Shown: positions 14,180-22,508 of the stretch, one piece after another | Layout: each line of letters starts with the position of its first letter | Numbering within the stretch: position 1 is the stretch's first letter | Source of the DNA: Christensenellaceae bacterium | GTDB taxonomy: Bacteria > Bacillota > Clostridia > Christensenellales > Borkfalkiaceae | DNA: 56,184 nucleotides | Assembly (NCBI GenBank): GCA_045655065.1 | Contig: JAZOOP010000066.1 | Span: forward strand, 1-56,184 | Direction of reading: 5' to 3' | Position numbers and translations under genes: made by a program | Notes under the pieces: model-generated | Seen by the model: only the letters and a program-made list of their open reading frames with translations | What the model was told of the DNA's origin: nothing | Databases searched by the model: none

Positions 14180-16948
14180 TTAATCAAAAATATCTTGTGC
14201 GTAAAATTCTAAGTCGCTTTCTATATAACCCCAAACTACTGGGCGATTTGAATAGTTCCAATCATAATCCCAACCACTTGGCTTACTTTCTGCTTCGCAA
14301 TAAATTGTTAATGAACTGCAACCAGAGAACGCCCCAGCACCTATACTTGTTACACTTTTTGGTATTTCTATTGCTTCTAATGAACTGCAATTACAGAACG
14401 CAACATAACCTATACTTGTTACACTGTTTGGTATTACTATACTTGTTAAATTACTGCACCCATAGAACGCAGAAGAACCTATACTTGTTACACTGTTGCC
14501 TATAGTTACGCTTGTTAATGAACTGCAATTACAGAACGCATCTTCACCTATACTTGTTACACTGTTGCCTATAGTTACACTTGTTAATAAATCGCAATAA
14601 CAGAACGCTTTATAACCTATACTTGTTACACTGTTTCCTATGGTTACACTTGTTAATGAATCGCACATATAGAACGCATAATCATTTATTTTTGTTGCTG
14701 TAGTTATATTTGCTTCTGTTACTAATTCATTGTTTATGTATAAGTTTTTAGCATGTAATAATGGGTTTGAATCTAAATCAGCAAATTCTATTTGCACCCA
14801 CTTATCTATTGTGCCTAAATAGTTTACTTTTGTTAATGAATCGCAATAATAGAACGCATTGTCACCTATACTTGTTACACTGTTTCCTATGGTTACACTT
14901 GTTAATGACTCGCAATATGAGAACGCAGCATAACCTATAATTGTTACACTGTCTCCTATGGTTACACTTGTTAATGATAAGCACATATAGAACGCCTCAT
15001 AACCTATACTTGTTACACTGTTTGGTATTTCTATTGCTTTTAAATCGCAATATTTGAACGCAGAATCACCTATACTTGTTACACTGTTTGGTATTTCTAT
15101 TGCTTTTAAATCGCAATTAAAAAACGTAGCCTCACCTATACTTGTTACGCTGTTTGGTATTTCTATGCTTGTTAATGACTCGCACTCACAGAACGCCACA
15201 TCACCAATACTTGTTACACTGTTTGGTATTACTATACTTGTTAAATTACTGCACCCATAGAACGCAGCATAACCTATAAATTTACAATTTTCGTTTATAT
15301 TGGCTGTGAAAATATACTTTGAAGTTACACTTGCTAAATATAAATATGGGTTTTCTTCATTGCCTAAATATTTTAGGTTTTCTTCTATATTATAAGTTAA
15401 ATTACTGCAACCAGAGAACGCCTCATCACCTATACTTGTTACACTGTTTGGTATTTCTATTGCTTCTAATGAACTGCAACCAAAGAACGCATCAGAACCT
15501 ACAAACCTACAATTATTGTTTATTGTTGCTGTTGTAAGATTTTTATCTGCAACACTTAAAAGATATAAATATTTATTATTTTCGTTGCCTAAATAGTTTA
15601 AACTGCTTTCTGTATTATAATTTAATGAACTGCAACCTTCAAATGCATAATCACCTATACTTGTTACACTGTTTGGTATTACTATACTTGTTAATTTACT
15701 ACAGCCAGAGAACGCAGAAGAACCTATACTTTTAACGGGCTTGCCTTCATATTCTTCTGCTATAATAATTTTTTTTGCAGTACCTTCATAGCCGATTACT
15801 TTTGCATAAGTGCCATCGGAAGAAATGTCATATATAACGCCCTCTGTTGCTCCTATTATTGCGTTACAAGTAGTGCAATAGCCAGAACCATCTGAAATAT
15901 GTTCTGCAATGTCTTTTGTTGCATCACAGTCGTTACACTTTATCCAATGGAAAGTATTATCTGTTGTATACGTTACTTGCCACTTATGGTCTGAAATAGG
16001 CGTATAATTTACTAGTTCTTCTATTCCACATATTGTACAAATTTTGTGGTCGTAACCTTGCGATTGGCAAGTTGGCTCTATTGTTTCAACTTCAAAGTCG
16101 TGGTCTTCATAAGTACCGTGCAAAAACTGTATTTCGTTACAAGTTTCGCATACGTGGTAAAATATTTTATTTTCGCAAGTATTGCCTTCATTGCCAAAAA
16201 CTATTAATTTCCCAAAAGTATGTACGTGCTCATTTTGTATTATGTTTTCTAATTCTGCAACCCTATCTAAAAGGGCATTTATAACTTCTCCTTGGGTTGC
16301 ATTTGTGGTTTTAATTTCTGCAATAAGGCTATTGATTTCTGCTAGTTTTGAATTGTAACCAGTGTTTATTTCTTCTATTTTGTTTTCTAGTTCATTTTTG
16401 TTTGTTTGTAATTGTGTGGTTAAATCACTTATACTGTTTTCTAACGTTTCTACTTCTTCTAAATATTTAGCGTCAAGGTTAGCCAAGGCCTGTTCAGTCG
16501 CTAAGTCCTTTTCTTGTAAGTCTGCTAAAGCTTCTTCATATTCATTTCTTAATGTTGTTATCGCTTCTTCTGTTGCTAAGTCCTTTTCTTGTAAGTCCGC
16601 TAAAGCTTCTTCGTATTCATTTCTTAAAGTTGCTAGTGCTTGTTCAGTCGCTAAGTCTTTTTCTTGTAAGTCTGCTAAAGCTTCTTCATATTCACTTCTT
16701 AAGGTTGTTAGCGCCTGTTCGTTTTCGGCTATTGTTGCCGAAAGTTCATTATCTTTTGCTTTATACTCTTCTGTCAATGCGTTTATTTTTGCTTCTAACT
16801 CTGTTTTGTTAGTATTAATTGTTGACTGAAGTTGTGCTATTAGTTCGTCTGTTTCAGTTGCCGTGTATGTTTTTTCGCAACCTGTTAACGTAAATGCCGT
16901 TAAACATAAAGTAACAATAGCCATTAGTACAATTAATAATTTTTTCAT
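14180..16948 (-). CDS. Surface lipoprotein with N-terminal coiled-coil repeats, a 10-Cys module and BspA-type leucine-rich repeats (922 aa)
   Basis: Signal peptide plus lipobox LTGC. It has 3x 25-aa heptad-like repeats and many 23-aa IPNSVTSIGxxAFxxCxSLTS LRR_5-type units. AGGAGG RBS. Confidence 0.85.
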   Translation of the reverse strand: MKKLLIVLMAIVTLCLTAFTLTGCEKTYTATETDELIAQLQSTINTNKTELEAKINALTEEYKAKDNELSATIAENEQALTTLRSEYEEALADLQEKDLATEQALATLRNEYEEALADLQEKDLATEEAITTLRNEYEEALADLQEKDLATEQALANLDAKYLEEVETLENSISDLTTQLQTNKNELENKIEEINTGYNSKLAEINSLIAEIKTTNATQGEVINALLDRVAELENIIQNEHVHTFGKLIVFGNEGNTCENKIFYHVCETCNEIQFLHGTYEDHDFEVETIEPTCQSQGYDHKICTICGIEELVNYTPISDHKWQVTYTTDNTFHWIKCNDCDATKDIAEHISDGSGYCTTCNAIIGATEGVIYDISSDGTYAKVIGYEGTAKKIIIAEEYEGKPVKSIGSSAFSGCSKLTSIVIPNSVTSIGDYAFEGCSSLNYNTESSLNYLGNENNKYLYLLSVADKNLTTATINNNCRFVGSDAFFGCSSLEAIEIPNSVTSIGDEAFSGCSNLTYNIEENLKYLGNEENPYLYLASVTSKYIFTANINENCKFIGYAAFYGCSNLTSIVIPNSVTSIGDVAFCECESLTSIEIPNSVTSIGEATFFNCDLKAIEIPNSVTSIGDSAFKYCDLKAIEIPNSVTSIGYEAFYMCLSLTSVTIGDSVTIIGYAAFSYCESLTSVTIGNSVTSIGDNAFYYCDSLTKVNYLGTIDKWVQIEFADLDSNPLLHAKNLYINNELVTEANITTATKINDYAFYMCDSLTSVTIGNSVTSIGYKAFCYCDLLTSVTIGNSVTSIGEDAFCNCSSLTSVTIGNSVTSIGSSAFYGCSNLTSIVIPNSVTSIGYVAFCNCSSLEAIEIPKSVTSIGAGAFSGCSSLTIYCEAESKPSGWDYDWNYSNRPVVWGYIESDLEFYAQDIFD
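16490..16714 (-). repeat. 3 x 75-nt in-frame tandem repeat (LxTLRxEYEEALADLQEKDLATEx)
   Basis: Three consecutive 25-aa units spanning aa 79-153 of the 922-aa protein, seen directly in the translation. Confidence 0.85.
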
Positions 16949-17408: not shown

Positions 17409-17454
17409 TTGACGCTATATAATATATTGTTTATAAAGTATTTAAAAATTGAAA

Positions 17455-17478
17455 CGAACCTAGAATTTTCTAGGTTCG
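17455..17478 (-). terminator. Terminator of the 1650-aa lipoprotein gene (copy of the 14141-14170 module)
   Basis: Identical CGAACCTAG-aatttt-CTAGGTTCG hairpin. Flanking homology (GCTATATAATATAT..TGTTTATAAA) extends to 17414. Confidence 0.8.
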
Positions 17479-17496
17479 TTTTAGTTTGTTTGTTTT

Positions 17497-20400
17497 TTAT
17501 TTATCTATTACTACTATACCATTTTTAAGCAATGGTTTATTATTAGAAATATACCAAACTTCCGTGCCCATATCATTAATTAGGTTGTTTGTTACAAACC
17601 TATTTTCAGTACCAACTGCAAAGAAACCTTTTTCAATTTTATAAGAGCCGTATACTGAAGACGCATATTCATCTGGAACAACGTATACGTTAGTCATAAG
17701 CAACGTGCCAGAGCCGTGTGTTACCCTTAAATCGTTTGAAGTTACGTCTCTATTAATATCAATATAAATATTTTTAGCAGTAGCATTATTAGACACCTTC
17801 ATTAAATAACCACTTTGAGCGCCACTCCAAGTTGAATAGTTAGTGCCGTTATAGGTTGTAGCAACCCTACCCTCAATAAACCCGTCTAAAATAACGTTTT
17901 CTACGTTACCAGAACAAGATGATATTAAACTTGAAGCACCACACATTACATCCCAGAATTTTTTTACCGTTAGGTTATGAACTTCTAAGTTTCTAATTTC
18001 ACCCGTAACTTTGCCAAACACTTGTTTACCTGTAACACTTTCCCAATCGTTAGGCACAAGTTTAATGTTGTTTAGCGCATAGCCGTTACCATTAAACAAC
18101 CCACCAATATTAATACCACCTGAAACAGAAATGCCAGAGAAATTTAAATCTTTGGTCAATAACGCATAGTCGGTTGATTGAAGACTTAAAAAAGCACTTG
18201 TAGTTGAAATATATTTGTTATAAATTAATAAGTCTACAAACTTGTAGGTGTAATCGTTATAACTTATTATAATTTTTGTTCTACCACCCTTTTTAGGTGT
18301 AAGAACACCATTAATATCTATTTCGGCTACGCTTTCATCTTCAACAGTGTAAATAAAGTTGCTTGCGCTATATTTATGGTTAGAAGAAGTTTCTAAGAAA
18401 TTAACGCTAGGTGTCATTTCAAACTCACCATTACCGGTATATAGCGTTAAAGATTCTTTATAAGAAATAGTAACTTTTAATATTACGTCTACTTCGCAAT
18501 AGAAAGTATATTCCTCCCCGCCATAGGTATGAACAGCGGTTATAATAACAGGTGTGCCTTTTTGGTTAACATCTAAAGCCCTAACTACACCGTCGTTAGA
18601 AACGCTAACTAAACTTGGGTTACTAGAAGTCCATACGGTTTTTCCACCTTCTACTACGTTTCCACCTAACGTTTTAGTAATTTTAAGTTTATATTCGTTG
18701 GTGCGATATAACGTTATATCGGTAGAGTTTATGGTTACTAGTTCTACAGGTACGTTATTATCTTTAACGTTAACGTTGCACTTTAAGAAACCATCTTCAT
18801 AATAACAAATAACGTAAGCAGTTCCAACGTTTTCTGCCGTTACTAAGCCGTTTTCAGAAATTGTGCAAACACTTTCATCTAAAGAAGCCCAAACAAATTC
18901 TCCACTATAGTTTTCAATGGTAAGTTGATAAGTTTCGTTAAGAGCAATTTCTAACTCTTCATTTGAAAGTTTAACTTTTTCCTTTATAGTTTTAGAACTT
19001 ACTACACCATTTGGTAATACGATGGTTGGTAAAGATATGCAACTTTCAAATATACCTTTACCTGCACTACTTAATAGGCTGTTTTCTTCAAACACTACGC
19101 TATTTAATTTAACGCAGTAAGCAAAAGCATAATTGCCTATTGTTCTTACACTTGCAGGAATTTCTATGGTTTTTATAGATTTACAGCCGTAGAAAGAATA
19201 ATCTGAAATGCTAGTTATGTCTGTTAATTGAACGTCGGTAACTAGTGTGCCGTTTAAATATAGGTTATAACCTAAGTATAGGCTAATGCCGTTTTTTGCT
19301 ATAAAGTTAATAGCAATTTCTTTTTCAGCCCACTCTTCCATAGTGCCTATAAAGTTAATTTTTGCAATATTACTATAAACGTTAAACTCGCCCGTTAATT
19401 TTGCTACTGCACTTGCAGGTAATTCTAGTTCTTCTATGTTATTACACATATAGAAGGCTTCTGCCCCTAAACTAACTAACTCTGCACCTTCTCTAATTAT
19501 TACCTTTTCTAACTTACTACAAGAAATAAATGCTCTGTTTGCAATAGTAGTTATTGTTGAAGGAATTATAACCGAAGTTACGTTACATTTGTTAAACGCA
19601 TAATATTCTATAGTTTTTACAGGCAAGCCGTTATAGTTAGTTGCAATAATAACGTTTGTTTCCGTGCCGTTATAACCTGTAACCATAGCGTACGTGCCGT
19701 CGTTAGAAATAGAATAAGATAGCCCTTCGGTTGGCAGTTCTAAACTACAAATATCGCAAATATCGTTTGCATTGTGGTCAGTATGCGCTTGTTTATCTTT
19801 TATAGTTTCGCAATTTACACATTCTACCCAATGGAAATAACTATCCGTTGTATAAGTGCTTTCCCAACTATGTGGTAAAACAGCAGTATAATTTACCTTT
19901 TCTTCTTTGCCACATATTGTACAAATTTTATGTTCGTAACCTTGAGCAGTGCAAGTTGCATTTATTGTTTCAACATCAAATTGGTGGTCGTTATAAGAGC
20001 CGAACCTATATTCAACGTCTTCGCAATGCGTACATTCACGGTAGAATAGTTTGTTTTCGCAAGTGGTTTGGCCGTTACCAAATATTTGCCATTCTCCATA
20101 GTTATGTATATTAGGAACTTCTATAGGTGCTAAAACCGTGCCGTCTGTTAAAGTTATAACAAGCCTGCCTTGGTTATCGTATTCCATTTTTTCTATAGTT
20201 GCGCAAGCATCACCGATTTCGCCATATGCGTTATACTCTGTTTTAACGCCGTCTATTACCCAATACCCGTCGTTGCTTATTTCTATATTTGGAATAACGC
20301 CGTCGTTGCCGTCTGCACCATTTGAGCCATTTGCTCCGTCTTGCCCGTTAGAGCCAACTGCTTTATATTCGGTTTTAACTCCGTTAATTACCCAATACCC

Positions 20401-22449
20401 ATCTTGGCTTATTTCTATGGTTGGAACAACTCCGTCTTTGCCGTCTTCGCCATTTGCTCCGTTAGAGCCGTTTTGCCCGTTAGCACCAATTGCCTTGTGT
20501 TCGGTTTTAACTCCATCAATAACCCAATACCCGTCTTGGCTAATTTCTATAGTTGGAACTTTTCCGTCGTTGCCGTTAGAGCCGTTTGTTCCGTCTGAGC
20601 CTATTGCTTTATATTGGGTTTTTTCTCCGTTAATTACCCAATAACCGTCTTGGCTAATTTCTATAGTTGGAACTTTTCCGTCGTTGCCGTCTGCACCATT
20701 TGAGCCATTTGCTCCGTCTTGCCCGTTAGAGCCAACTGCCTTATATTCGGTTTTAACTCCGTTAATTACCCAATATCCGTCTTCGCTGATATCTATGGTT
20801 GGAACAACTCCGTCTTTACCATCTTCGCCATTAGCGCCGTTAGAGCCGTTTTGCCCGTTAGAGCCAACTGCCTTATGCTCGGTTTTTTCGCCGTTGATTA
20901 TCCAATATCCGTCTTGGCTAATTTGTATAGTTGGAACTTCACCGTCAGCACCATTTGCGCCGTTTGCTCCGTCTTCGCCAACTGCTTTATATTGGGTTTT
21001 TTCGCCGTTGATTACCCAATATCCGTCTTGACTAATTTCTATAGTTGGAACAACTCCGTCTTTACCATCTTCGCCATTAGCGCCGTTAGAGCCGTTTTGC
21101 CCGTTAGCACCAATTGCCTTGTGTTCGGTTTTAACTCCATCAATAACCCAATACCCGTCTTGACTAATTTCTATAGTTGGCATTAAACTATTTCCGTCGT
21201 CGGTAGCAATTGCCTTATGTTCAGTTTTAACGCCGTTAATTACCCAATAACCATCTTGGCTTACTTGTATGGTTGGAACAACTCCATCTACGCCGTCTTT
21301 TCCGTTTGTGCCGTCTTGCCCGTCTTGACCATCTTCACCAATAGCCTTGTATTCGGTTTTAACTCCGTTTATAACCCAATATCCGTCTTCACTAATTTCT
21401 ATTGAAGGGGTTACTCCGTCAACGCCGTTTGTACCATTTGTACCGTTTTGCCCGTCTTGACCATCTTCACCAATAGCCTTGTATTCGGTTTCAACCCCAT
21501 TAATAACCCAATAGCCATCTTCACTAATTTCTATTGAAGGGGTTACTCCATCAACGCCGTTTGAACCATTTGTACCGTTTGCGCCGTTTTGACCATTAGA
21601 GCCAATGGCCTTATATTCGGTTTCAACTCCGTTAATTACCCAATATCCGTCTTCACTAATTTCTATTGAAGGTATTACTCCGTCTTCGCCGTTTGAACCA
21701 TTTGTACCGTTTGCGCCATTTTGACCATTAGAGCCAATGGCTTTATACTCGGTTTTAACTCCGTTAATTACCCAATAGCCGTCTTGGCTAATTTCTATTG
21801 AAGGGGTAACGCCGTCTTCGCCGTTAGAGCCGTTTGCTCCGTCGTTTCCAATAGCCTTATGCTCGGTTTTAACTCCGTTAATAACCCAATAGCCGTCTTC
21901 ACTAATTTCTATAGTTGGTATTTCGCCGTCAGTGCCATTATCACCATTTGCTCCGTTAGAGCCATTAGCACCATTATAGCCAACTGCTTTATATTGGGTT
22001 TTTTCGCCGTTTATTACCCAATAGCCGTCTCCACTAACTTCTATAGTTGGTATTAAACCATCTGCACCATTAGCACCATTTGTGCCGTTTGCACCATTAG
22101 AACCATTAGAGCCAACTGCCTTATATTCAGTTTTTACACCATTAATTACCCAATATCCGTCTTCGCTGATATCTATTGAAGGGGTTACTCCGTTTTCGCC
22201 GTCTTCGCCGTCTTCACCCTTATCGCCTTTATCACCTTTGTCGCCCTTATCGCCTTTTTCACCCTTAATGGTTTCTAACCATTCTTCATAACTTAGTGGT
22301 GTTTGGCCATCTGTTTGCATTTGGGCTACGTATAAATTGTATTTTTCATAACTTTCGCCACTCTGTTTATTACCACAACCAATTACTGCAAACGCAGAAA
22401 CACTCGCGATTAACAACGTAAGTAAAAATATTAGTATTTTCTTTTTCAT
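17497..22449 (-). CDS. Giant surface lipoprotein (1650 aa) with six domain regions
   Basis: Domains in order: interrupted collagen-like repeats, 10-Cys module, BspA-type LRRs, three Big_2-like domains, and a C-terminal beta-helix-like domain. Signal peptide plus lipobox VIGC; AAAGGAG RBS. There are 16 GXY-tract/PTIEISxDGYWVINGxKTEYKAxG units. The LRR and Ig-like (VxWxSSNxxVxxVSxxGxVxA) motifs and the GGLFNGNGYALNNI motif were read from the translation. Confidence 0.85.
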   Translation of the reverse strand: MKKKILIFLLTLLIASVSAFAVIGCGNKQSGESYEKYNLYVAQMQTDGQTPLSYEEWLETIKGEKGDKGDKGDKGDKGEDGEDGENGVTPSIDISEDGYWVINGVKTEYKAVGSNGSNGANGTNGANGADGLIPTIEVSGDGYWVINGEKTQYKAVGYNGANGSNGANGDNGTDGEIPTIEISEDGYWVINGVKTEHKAIGNDGANGSNGEDGVTPSIEISQDGYWVINGVKTEYKAIGSNGQNGANGTNGSNGEDGVIPSIEISEDGYWVINGVETEYKAIGSNGQNGANGTNGSNGVDGVTPSIEISEDGYWVINGVETEYKAIGEDGQDGQNGTNGTNGVDGVTPSIEISEDGYWVINGVKTEYKAIGEDGQDGQDGTNGKDGVDGVVPTIQVSQDGYWVINGVKTEHKAIATDDGNSLMPTIEISQDGYWVIDGVKTEHKAIGANGQNGSNGANGEDGKDGVVPTIEISQDGYWVINGEKTQYKAVGEDGANGANGADGEVPTIQISQDGYWIINGEKTEHKAVGSNGQNGSNGANGEDGKDGVVPTIDISEDGYWVINGVKTEYKAVGSNGQDGANGSNGADGNDGKVPTIEISQDGYWVINGEKTQYKAIGSDGTNGSNGNDGKVPTIEISQDGYWVIDGVKTEHKAIGANGQNGSNGANGEDGKDGVVPTIEISQDGYWVINGVKTEYKAVGSNGQDGANGSNGADGNDGVIPNIEISNDGYWVIDGVKTEYNAYGEIGDACATIEKMEYDNQGRLVITLTDGTVLAPIEVPNIHNYGEWQIFGNGQTTCENKLFYRECTHCEDVEYRFGSYNDHQFDVETINATCTAQGYEHKICTICGKEEKVNYTAVLPHSWESTYTTDSYFHWVECVNCETIKDKQAHTDHNANDICDICSLELPTEGLSYSISNDGTYAMVTGYNGTETNVIIATNYNGLPVKTIEYYAFNKCNVTSVIIPSTITTIANRAFISCSKLEKVIIREGAELVSLGAEAFYMCNNIEELELPASAVAKLTGEFNVYSNIAKINFIGTMEEWAEKEIAINFIAKNGISLYLGYNLYLNGTLVTDVQLTDITSISDYSFYGCKSIKTIEIPASVRTIGNYAFAYCVKLNSVVFEENSLLSSAGKGIFESCISLPTIVLPNGVVSSKTIKEKVKLSNEELEIALNETYQLTIENYSGEFVWASLDESVCTISENGLVTAENVGTAYVICYYEDGFLKCNVNVKDNNVPVELVTINSTDITLYRTNEYKLKITKTLGGNVVEGGKTVWTSSNPSLVSVSNDGVVRALDVNQKGTPVIITAVHTYGGEEYTFYCEVDVILKVTISYKESLTLYTGNGEFEMTPSVNFLETSSNHKYSASNFIYTVEDESVAEIDINGVLTPKKGGRTKIIISYNDYTYKFVDLLIYNKYISTTSAFLSLQSTDYALLTKDLNFSGISVSGGINIGGLFNGNGYALNNIKLVPNDWESVTGKQVFGKVTGEIRNLEVHNLTVKKFWDVMCGASSLISSCSGNVENVILDGFIEGRVATTYNGTNYSTWSGAQSGYLMKVSNNATAKNIYIDINRDVTSNDLRVTHGSGTLLMTNVYVVPDEYASSVYGSYKIEKGFFAVGTENRFVTNNLINDMGTEVWYISNNKPLLKNGIVVIDK
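20221..22263 (-). repeat. 16 in-frame coding repeats of 96-132 nt
   Basis: Each unit is a GXY tract (2-6 triplets) plus a 26-aa module. The array is preceded by (GDK)n collagen-like triplets. It spans aa 63-743 of the 1650-aa protein. Units are 44, 38 or 32 aa, and blocks of 2-3 units are themselves duplicated. Confidence 0.9.
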
Positions 22450-22508
22450 CTACAGCTCCTTTTATGATAATGCATTAACTGAGTAACAATTCTTTTTTAC
22501 TTTTTATT

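Follow-up and report, generated by a model that had tools for sequence, protein, structure and literature searches.

A region of ~300 amino acids (aa) at the N-terminus is common to BT3328, BT3329 and other proteins of Bacteroides thetaiotaomicron positioned as surface glycan-binding proteins, and Ndeh et al. proposed that it is a spacer reaching beyond the capsule, functionally like BACON (PMC6994673). We describe here a 1650-aa surface lipoprotein of an uncultured Clostridia bacterium, in which an array of 16 short repeat units, each pairing a small beta module with a collagen-like Gly-X-Y (GXY) tract, stands between a lipid anchor and a leucine-rich repeat (LRR) head. The gene lies on the minus strand of a 56,184-nt stretch of DNA (the window; contig JAZOOP010000066.1, positions 1 to 56,184, of the Christensenellaceae bacterium assembly GCA_045655065.1). 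On balance, we favour the reading that this is a lipid-anchored BspA-type LRR surface protein whose collagen-plus-beta-node stalk would be made of three parallel chains and act as a spacer for the head.

The closest described systems each share a part of this layout. In proteins with the DUF4988 domain, as in BT3328 and BT3329, a GXY tract and a 'P-x-I-x-I..G-Y-W..' hairpin likewise follow the lipoprotein signal and precede a functional head. The DUF4988 proteins of Bacteroides contain a few mixed modules whereas the array described here has 16 uniform units; the host is a member of the Clostridia and not of the Bacteroidales, and the head is of the LRR_5 type in place of a lyase or a glycan-binding protein. 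Scl1 and Scl2 are similar in being cell-surface proteins with Pro-poor, Asp-rich GXY sequence and a stalk-plus-head arrangement (NCBIfam SclB match, E 9e-37). Their collagen domain, however, is continuous, trimerisation is the task of an N-terminal V domain, and an LPXTG motif anchors them at the C-terminus; in the lipoprotein, beta modules break the collagen into 17 short tracts, and the anchor is an N-terminal lipid. BspA and TpLRR, LRR_5 proteins of oral and gut anaerobes, have the same head, and this likeness concerns the cargo and not the array.

Anatomy and family of the repeat array

The features on which the argument depends are given below, with coordinates of the window.

17497..22449, minus strand: whole coding sequence of the 1650-aa surface lipoprotein (list of open reading frames; Pfam DUF4988, Collagen, LRR_5, Big_2 and HL_N-beta)
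22183..22263, minus strand: leading collagen-like tract, aa 63-89, GEK (GDK)4 (GED)2 GEN GVT, 9 triplets (best Pfam Collagen stretch, aa 63-87)
20224..22182, minus strand: 16-unit array, aa 90-742 (spacing, alignment, Tandem Repeats Finder, nine-stretch DUF4988 match, AlphaFold2)
21181..21207, minus strand: degenerate linker 'ATDDGNSLM', aa 415-423, at the junction of modules 8 and 9 (spacing and linker analysis)

Anchoring on the DGYW motif identified 16 modules, spaced by 44, 44, 38, 44, 44, 44, 44, 32, 44, 38, 44, 44, 38, 44 and 44 aa (44 aa eleven times, 38 aa three times and 32 aa once). Tandem Repeats Finder reported overlapping arrays with periods of 132, 114, 246, 264 and 378 nt and scores of up to 1322. 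The array is thus far beyond chance and contains higher-order blocks of two to three units. Both analyses agree with the initial annotation of this DNA, which had counted 16 units of 44, 38 or 32 aa; its interval, positions 20221-22263, corresponds exactly to aa 63-743, and the duplication of blocks of two to three units that it described is borne out by the periods of 246, 264 and 378 nt. A 48-aa peptide that it quoted as occurring twice was found at aa 435 and aa 643, the two copies sharing 133 of 144 DNA bases.

The division of the unit had to be redrawn. The Gly register runs from the Gly after 'KAx' through the 'GVT' before Pro, and therefore the non-collagen core is 23 aa long and the tracts have 7, 5 or 3 triplet positions. 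The unit is then the core P-x-I-x-[IV]-S-x-D-G-Y-W-[VI]-I-[ND]-G-x-x-T-x-x-x-A-x followed by an in-phase GXY tract. The earlier division into a 26-aa module and tracts of 6, 4 or 2 triplets describes the same alternation, and its boundaries are a matter of definition. One part of it did not stand: the linker of the 32-aa unit, taken as a tract of two triplets, is the segment at aa 415-423, the sole junction of the array without Gly in register and hence a true interruption. In an alignment of the 16 modules, mean column identity was 83% and 11 columns were invariant (P4, I6, S9, D11, G12, Y13, W14, I16, G18, T21 and A25).

The whole protein matched Pfam DUF4988 (PF16378) in nine stretches at 134.3 bits (gathering cut-off 30; E 5.4e-39), two array units mapping to profile positions 64-150 of 183. 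The layout is also that of the family, with a lipobox ending at Cys25, the array at aa 63-742 and the head from aa 909, and homologues are arranged alike. A strict Gly-X-Y match to Collagen (PF01391) was obtained as well (65.8 bits; Pfam cut-off 27.2). The NCBIfam model NF058554 (BT_3328_fam, PL29 hyaluronate endo-lyase) was matched only at profile positions 87-171 of 840, which fall inside the proposed ~300-aa spacer region; at 133 bits against a cut-off of 1100 the lipoprotein is not a full-length member. Scores for Scl1 and Scl2 (NF038329 and NF038330) were likewise below their cut-offs (127 against 325 and 72 against 400 bits), and no LPXTG motif was seen in the C-terminal sequence of the lipoprotein, the anchor being the N-terminal lipobox. 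The likeness to DUF families of Bacteroidales that the initial annotation had tentatively suggested was therefore right, and its statement that the architecture is not a characterised one overstates the novelty: Pfam and NCBIfam already list this architecture, which is widespread, and a spacer role had been put forward for the BT3328 N-terminal region, which the repeats match in part (PMC6994673). Since DUF4988 has neither a solved structure nor a tested function, the assignment to a Pfam family leaves the interpretation as a stalk in place.

No close orthologue turned up among 5.8 billion proteins searched, where the best match was 40% identical over 37%. The search did return many proteins with GXY-plus-module arrays from Treponema, Clostridia, Alistipes and Paludibacteraceae. 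With a profile of the module only, 1,140 cluster representatives were matched among 1.84 billion searched (E up to 1e-3), and the carriers belonged to Clostridia, Treponema and Bacteroidota. The best 150 of these 1,140 hits had at most 13 matched stretches each; with 16 units, the array described here is the longest of this subtype among the matches listed. According to Pfam, arrays are fused to many unrelated domains, among them LRR_5, carboxypeptidase-regulatory-like, solute-binding protein, GDPD, BNR sialidase-like and DUF4838. Other short modules ('GNGNWWIG.DTGV', 'DGYWYVSYD.G.TW', 'G.LVITLTDG' and a helical 'SAYEIAV.NGY.GTEEEWL.SLKG') are interchangeable with one another between GXY tracts, so that the family is a patchwork of small modules threaded along collagen-like tracts. 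The array is a record-length member of this catalogued DUF4988 / collagen-like mosaic stalk family.

Linker phase, selection and the oligomeric state of the stalk

The evidence on how the chains are arranged comes largely from the linkers. We collected 120 inter-module linkers from the lipoprotein array and fetched homologues. Linker length was a multiple of three in 108 of the 120, and 103 were perfect in-phase GXY tracts, running from the terminal Gly of one module to the 'GxxP' of the next with 0-13 triplets; most exceptions hold another inserted module. In the lipoprotein array itself, 14 of 15 linkers were perfectly in phase. Gly was in register at all 77 positions of the 11 seven-triplet tracts, and each Gly column uses 2-4 synonymous codons. 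The Y position of these tracts was always Asn or Asp, with Asn at column 11 and Asp at column 17 in 11 of 11 tracts. Between units, dN/dS was 0.20 for the tracts and 0.09 for the modules, at a dS of ~1. Gly has thus been kept despite synonymous turnover, indicating that the periodicity is held by selection and is not the product of recent slippage. A selected Gly periodicity is a requirement of a triple helix and not of a flexible tether, and a triple helix, and so a trimer, is therefore favoured.

We propose a trimeric state, a mode of node packing and a stalk length along the following lines. Three identical lipid-tethered chains would associate in parallel. Their GXY tracts, mainly of 5-7 triplets, would wind into short triple helices of the collagen type, each weak alone, and the beta modules, hydrophobic on both faces of the central strand, would pack round the three-fold axis as nodes, each starting a helix segment and setting its register. 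The product would be a segmented, semi-rigid rod with a contour of the order of 100 nm, because ~300 in-register GXY residues at 0.286 nm, plus 16 nodes, would give about that length. Neck, LRR_5 head and Ig-like domains would be borne by the rod across the cell wall and past it; in what is presumably a monoderm cell of the Clostridia, a membrane-anchored lipoprotein must also cross the wall. The junction at aa 415-423, which lacks the Gly register, is a candidate hinge in such a rod.

Relatives of the array are found in phages, some of them annotated as tail fibre proteins. PHROG 27088, of unknown function, matched the array with an E of 4e-47, and several 'collagen-like minor tail' and 'tail fiber' PHROGs matched as well; for a query spanning aa 24-743, the best stretches of match to collagen-like tail fibre PHROGs lay at ~aa 39 to 213. 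The top structural match in BFVD was a crAss-like 'tail fiber protein' (40% identity, probability 0.99), and tblastn located the unit in the crAss-like Bacteroides phages DAC15 and DAC17 and in Dulem virus 41. In DAC15 gp37 the order is 'CSIEISKQNTWVINGVDTG...GITPKIGPNGNWWI...GITPHIGSNYNWFI', followed by canonical GPP-type collagen. DAC15 gp37 (L081 5869-8925) and the Dulem virus 41 protein (L082 4131-5627) are annotated as hypothetical; both contain 'IEIS..TWVINGxDTG' and 'GNWWI' modules with GXY tracts, and in Dulem virus 41 the gene is flanked by the portal gene on one side and by a 'pyocin knob' gene on the other.

The collagen-like tail protein EPclA of an Escherichia coli O157 prophage was found experimentally to be a trimer, its triple helix being flanked by trimerisation domains (PMC3368898). 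EPclA and EPclB, FibU (gp68) of Staphylococcus aureus phage 80alpha and the crAss-like proteins resemble the array in having GXY tracts flanked by small non-collagen modules. Residues 184-231 of FibU align weakly with the array (E 0.05); the fibrous part of FibU is unresolved in 6v8i, where the model stops at residue 123 (PMC7048315), and therefore no structure can be transferred to the module. The lipoprotein gene is unlike those for phage tail fibres in being chromosomal and in encoding a lipoprotein signal and an LRR head. A prophage origin was considered and rejected, the neighbouring genes being housekeeping genes (glnA, guaA, RNase Y, ftsK, uvrAB, dnaG and ackA).

Several observations weigh against a trimeric rod, and most of them would fit a chain that acts singly. 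In such a monomeric tether, the modules would be autonomous mini beta-sheets joined like beads on a string by GXY segments that are extended (polyproline II-like) or flexible, and its reach would follow from contour length. The AlphaFold2 model of a monomer of two units, calculated from a 55-sequence alignment, folds each module alone as a three-stranded beta meander (strands E18-20, E25-28 and E31-36) with a block-mean pLDDT (predicted local distance difference test) of 62-74. The GXY tracts are low-confidence coil in this model (pLDDT below 50), and a monomer model is silent on packing; the picture of small beta meanders alternating with GXY segments supports the beads-on-a-string arrangement of the initial annotation as a prediction. 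In some relatives, modules abut with 0-2 triplets between them, so that continuity does not depend on collagen. A confident monomer prediction was obtained for the neck, and both neck and head look like monomeric folds. The tracts contain no Pro and few Lys and have Asn or Asp at the Y position, from which weak triple helices are predicted; in host-guest peptides, Asn and Asp are among the weaker Y-position residues.

A further point of this kind came from the Protein Data Bank (PDB). Searches of the PDB by sequence with the whole array, the module profile, a Bacteroidota homologue and DAC15 gp37 found no significant solved relative. The GH98 endoxylanase of Bacteroides ovatus (9h6f/9h6g/9h6h) was the top match in both the hidden Markov model search with a two-unit profile and the Foldseek search with the monomer model, with non-significant scores (E 0.03 and 0.5, respectively), over residues 81-129 ('YYWTLDD...APIVDINTDGYWTVKYG'). 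Its N-terminus (residues ~68-144) contains two module-like hairpins and no collagen. The enzyme is probably the sole relative of the module with a crystal structure, and these hairpins without GXY suggest that the module may not need a trimeric collagen setting in order to fold.

We consider the monomeric tether unlikely. It does not account for the strict retention of Gly at every third position while synonymous codons turn over, nor for the position-specific X and Y residues and the triplet-quantised linkers that are seen across phyla. In the 16-module alignment, the central strand of the module is hydrophobic on both faces (Y13/V15 and W14/I16), and a lone 23-residue sheet would not be expected to bury both. 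In addition, some relatives bear the annotation of phage tail fibres, and proteins of that class are typically trimers (PMC3368898). Taken together, the triplet-quantised linkers, the selection on Gly and the relatives annotated as phage tail fibre proteins favour the trimer, to which we give about an even chance. A role as a stalk or spacer appears considerably more likely than the trimer, and is well supported by context and precedent; the array most likely holds the LRR adhesin head far from the cell.

We tentatively extend the trimeric rod to a class of 'segmented collagen', a proposal in which we place somewhat less confidence than in the reading of the lipoprotein itself. Its members would be homotrimers of many very short Pro-free (G-X-N/D)n helices, each started and held in register by a 23-residue trimeric beta node, and the design would be shared and exchanged among surface lipoproteins of gut Clostridia, Spirochaetes and Bacteroidota and crAss-like phage proteins with tail fibre annotations. 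The node would then be a new minimal module for collagen trimerisation and registration, and the stalk could be lengthened or shortened by three residues at a time.

Divergence of the repeats and variation in stalk length

The initial annotation had expected near-identical DNA repeats to make the stalk hypervariable in length, which the DNA does not support. Module DNA identity averaged 78% (range 63-96%) at a dS of ~1.0, and differences between modules fell mostly at third codon positions (626, 231 and 1284 at the first, second and third positions, respectively). The most alike unit pairs were 9/14 at 96% and 12/15 and 6/7 at 92%; with 4/5 and 10/13, these make up the pairs that are 90-96% identical. 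No exact repeat of 100 nt or more was found in the array, in which 59 exact 50-mer sequences and one exact 80-mer are repeated. The units are thus old duplicates with a few recent block duplications, including that of the 378-nt period, and the exact matches of 50-80 nt could now and then permit unequal recombination. Unit number is 1-6 in homologues that share the neck and head and 16 in the lipoprotein, and length therefore varies over evolutionary time; distant homologues have 1-13. In searches of public runs, near-identical lipoprotein sequence was found only in goat, sheep and other gut metagenomes, as Logan short-read contigs that covered at most 19% of the sampled words. The contig pieces over the locus were 100-350 nt long, and their joints are indistinguishable from cross-mapping of other collagen-like genes.

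Periscope Proteins are defined by long, highly identical repeats, whose close match in DNA is the presumed driver of recombination (PMC8201768). These proteins and other fibrillar adhesins (SasG, Rib and the Sgo_0707 SHIRT domains) resemble the array in that a tandem-repeat stalk projects an adhesive head and repeat number differs among relatives. Their stalks are made of monomeric globular-domain repeats with highly identical DNA, whereas the array consists of 32-44-aa collagen-containing units that are probably trimeric and have 78% DNA identity (PMC8201768). A stalk of the Periscope type, in which gain and loss of units by intragenic recombination would switch the height of the head as a contingency mechanism, is improbable for this locus. 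The array does stand as 16 tandem units between anchor and head, and the higher-order 246-, 264- and 378-nt repeats, the several unit pairs with 90-96% DNA identity, the repeated 50-mers and 80-mer, the 1-6 units of homologues with the same neck and head, and the limit of 13 matched stretches in the best 150 hits would all be in keeping with such a mechanism. Against this are the mean identity and dS of the units and the lack of any exact repeat of at least 100 nt; unit identities of 63-96% do not amount to the high DNA identity of Periscope stalks.

It is very improbable that the aromatic hairpins bind cell-wall polymers or host glycans, the array being an avidity device or a wall anchor: the 'DGYWxING' hairpin resembles cell-wall-binding hairpin repeats and the module is under strong purifying selection (dN/dS 0.09), but kinship to cell-wall-binding repeat families was rejected since no such Pfam family matched even at E up to 1, the modules also occur in Bacteroidota outer-membrane lipoproteins and annotated phage tail fibres, where there is no Gram-positive wall, and the array adjoins the membrane anchor while the fused heads already provide binding or catalysis.

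The remainder of the protein, its locus and implications

The Pfam scan placed the parts of the lipoprotein in the order stalk, neck, LRR_5 head, Ig-like domains and a C-terminal domain without a family. The features outside the array are as follows.

22456..22462, minus strand: Shine-Dalgarno-like AAAGGAG, 6 nt 5' of the ATG (read from sequence)
22375..22449, minus strand: signal peptide and lipobox, aa 1-25, ..AFAVIG-C25 (MKKKILIFLLTLLIASVSAFAVIG-C25), N-terminal lipid anchor (sequence)
22264..22374, minus strand: N-terminal module, aa 26-62, ending in 'PLSYEEWLETIK' directly before the first GXY tract (motif recurrence in homologues)
19726..20223, minus strand: neck, aa 743-908, a 'GRLVITLTDG' beta hairpin and then His/Cys-rich repeats (alignment, AlphaFold2)
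18970..19725, minus strand: BspA-type LRR_5 head, ~aa 909-1160 (Pfam LRR_5, Foldseek)
18250..18969, minus strand: three Ig-like domains (Big_2 / HL_N-beta type), ~aa 1161-1400 (Pfam)
17500..18249, minus strand: C-terminal ~250 aa, aa 1401-1650, distal tip (no family match)
17452..17481, minus strand: terminator-like hairpin, 16 nt past the stop codon (sequence)

The lipobox, the ribosome-binding site and the terminator mark the gene as intact. The lipobox follows the established rule [LVI][ASTVI][GAS]C, and lipoboxes also begin the homologues. The 'YE..GT.EEWL.SLKG' motif of aa 26-62 adjoins GXY tracts in homologues too, and this segment is a candidate nucleation module. The 'PLSYEEWLETIKG' motif lies within aa 26-62, directly before the first GXY tract, and an element of the form 'SAYEIAVENGY.GTEEEWL.SLKG' occurs between collagen tracts in many homologues.

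The neck contains repeats with HxYGxW.. and pairs of CxxC, with H37, C52, C61, C64, H77, C132, C135, H144, C153 and C156 invariant in the alignment (A3), and is kept in at least 50 fetched homologues. AlphaFold2 predicted an elongated all-beta rod with a mean pLDDT of 90; no Pfam family and no PDB fold matched the neck. It would adapt the stalk to the head, and may be a rod stabilised by metal or disulfides. The head scored 113.8 bits for LRR_5 (cut-off 27.7; E 7e-33 to 3e-35), and Foldseek matched it to TpLRR of Treponema pallidum (6mlx) with a probability of 1.0. For the C-terminal ~250 aa, no Pfam match was obtained beyond the HL_N-beta edge, and there was one weak BLAST match among ~250 fetched relatives.

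G+C content is 43.7% in the array (20215-22263), compared with 34.3% in the rest of the gene and 34.6% in the window. The raised value is due to Gly (GGN) codons and is therefore not a sign of foreign origin. Four open reading frames of 85-168 aa are present on the plus strand of the array (20138-20644, 20341-20598, 20684-21031 and 20719-21186); with their Pro/Ser/Leu-rich translations, they were rejected as genes and are antisense by-products of the repeat.

The GlnA encoded at this locus is at most 76% identical to that of any GTDB species representative, and the nearest are all uncultured Clostridia metagenome-assembled genomes. In the two nearest genomes (GlnA 76%), the lipoprotein gene is absent from the syntenic position after glnA. 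There, glnA is followed by glutamate-synthase-like genes (L001 12100-14535 and L002 7854-10290, as against 17497-22508 in the window), so that at this position the stalk protein is specific to the lineage. The next gene downstream (14180-16948, minus strand) encodes a 922-aa protein that consists almost wholly of BspA-type LRR_5 repeats (E 8e-114), so that two LRR surface-protein genes stand in tandem.

The DUF4988 / collagen-like stalk is common in surface proteins of gut anaerobes, in enzymes and adhesins alike. The array of this lipoprotein, with 16 nearly uniform units, is the cleanest and longest natural one found, and would be a good source of constructs. If the chains are monomeric, the stalk is simply another spacer. 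If the trimeric rod is correct, the 23-residue module would offer collagen engineering a compact tag for registration and trimerisation, and stalk length would become a measurable variable in how adhesins and glycan-degrading enzymes are presented past the wall or the capsule.

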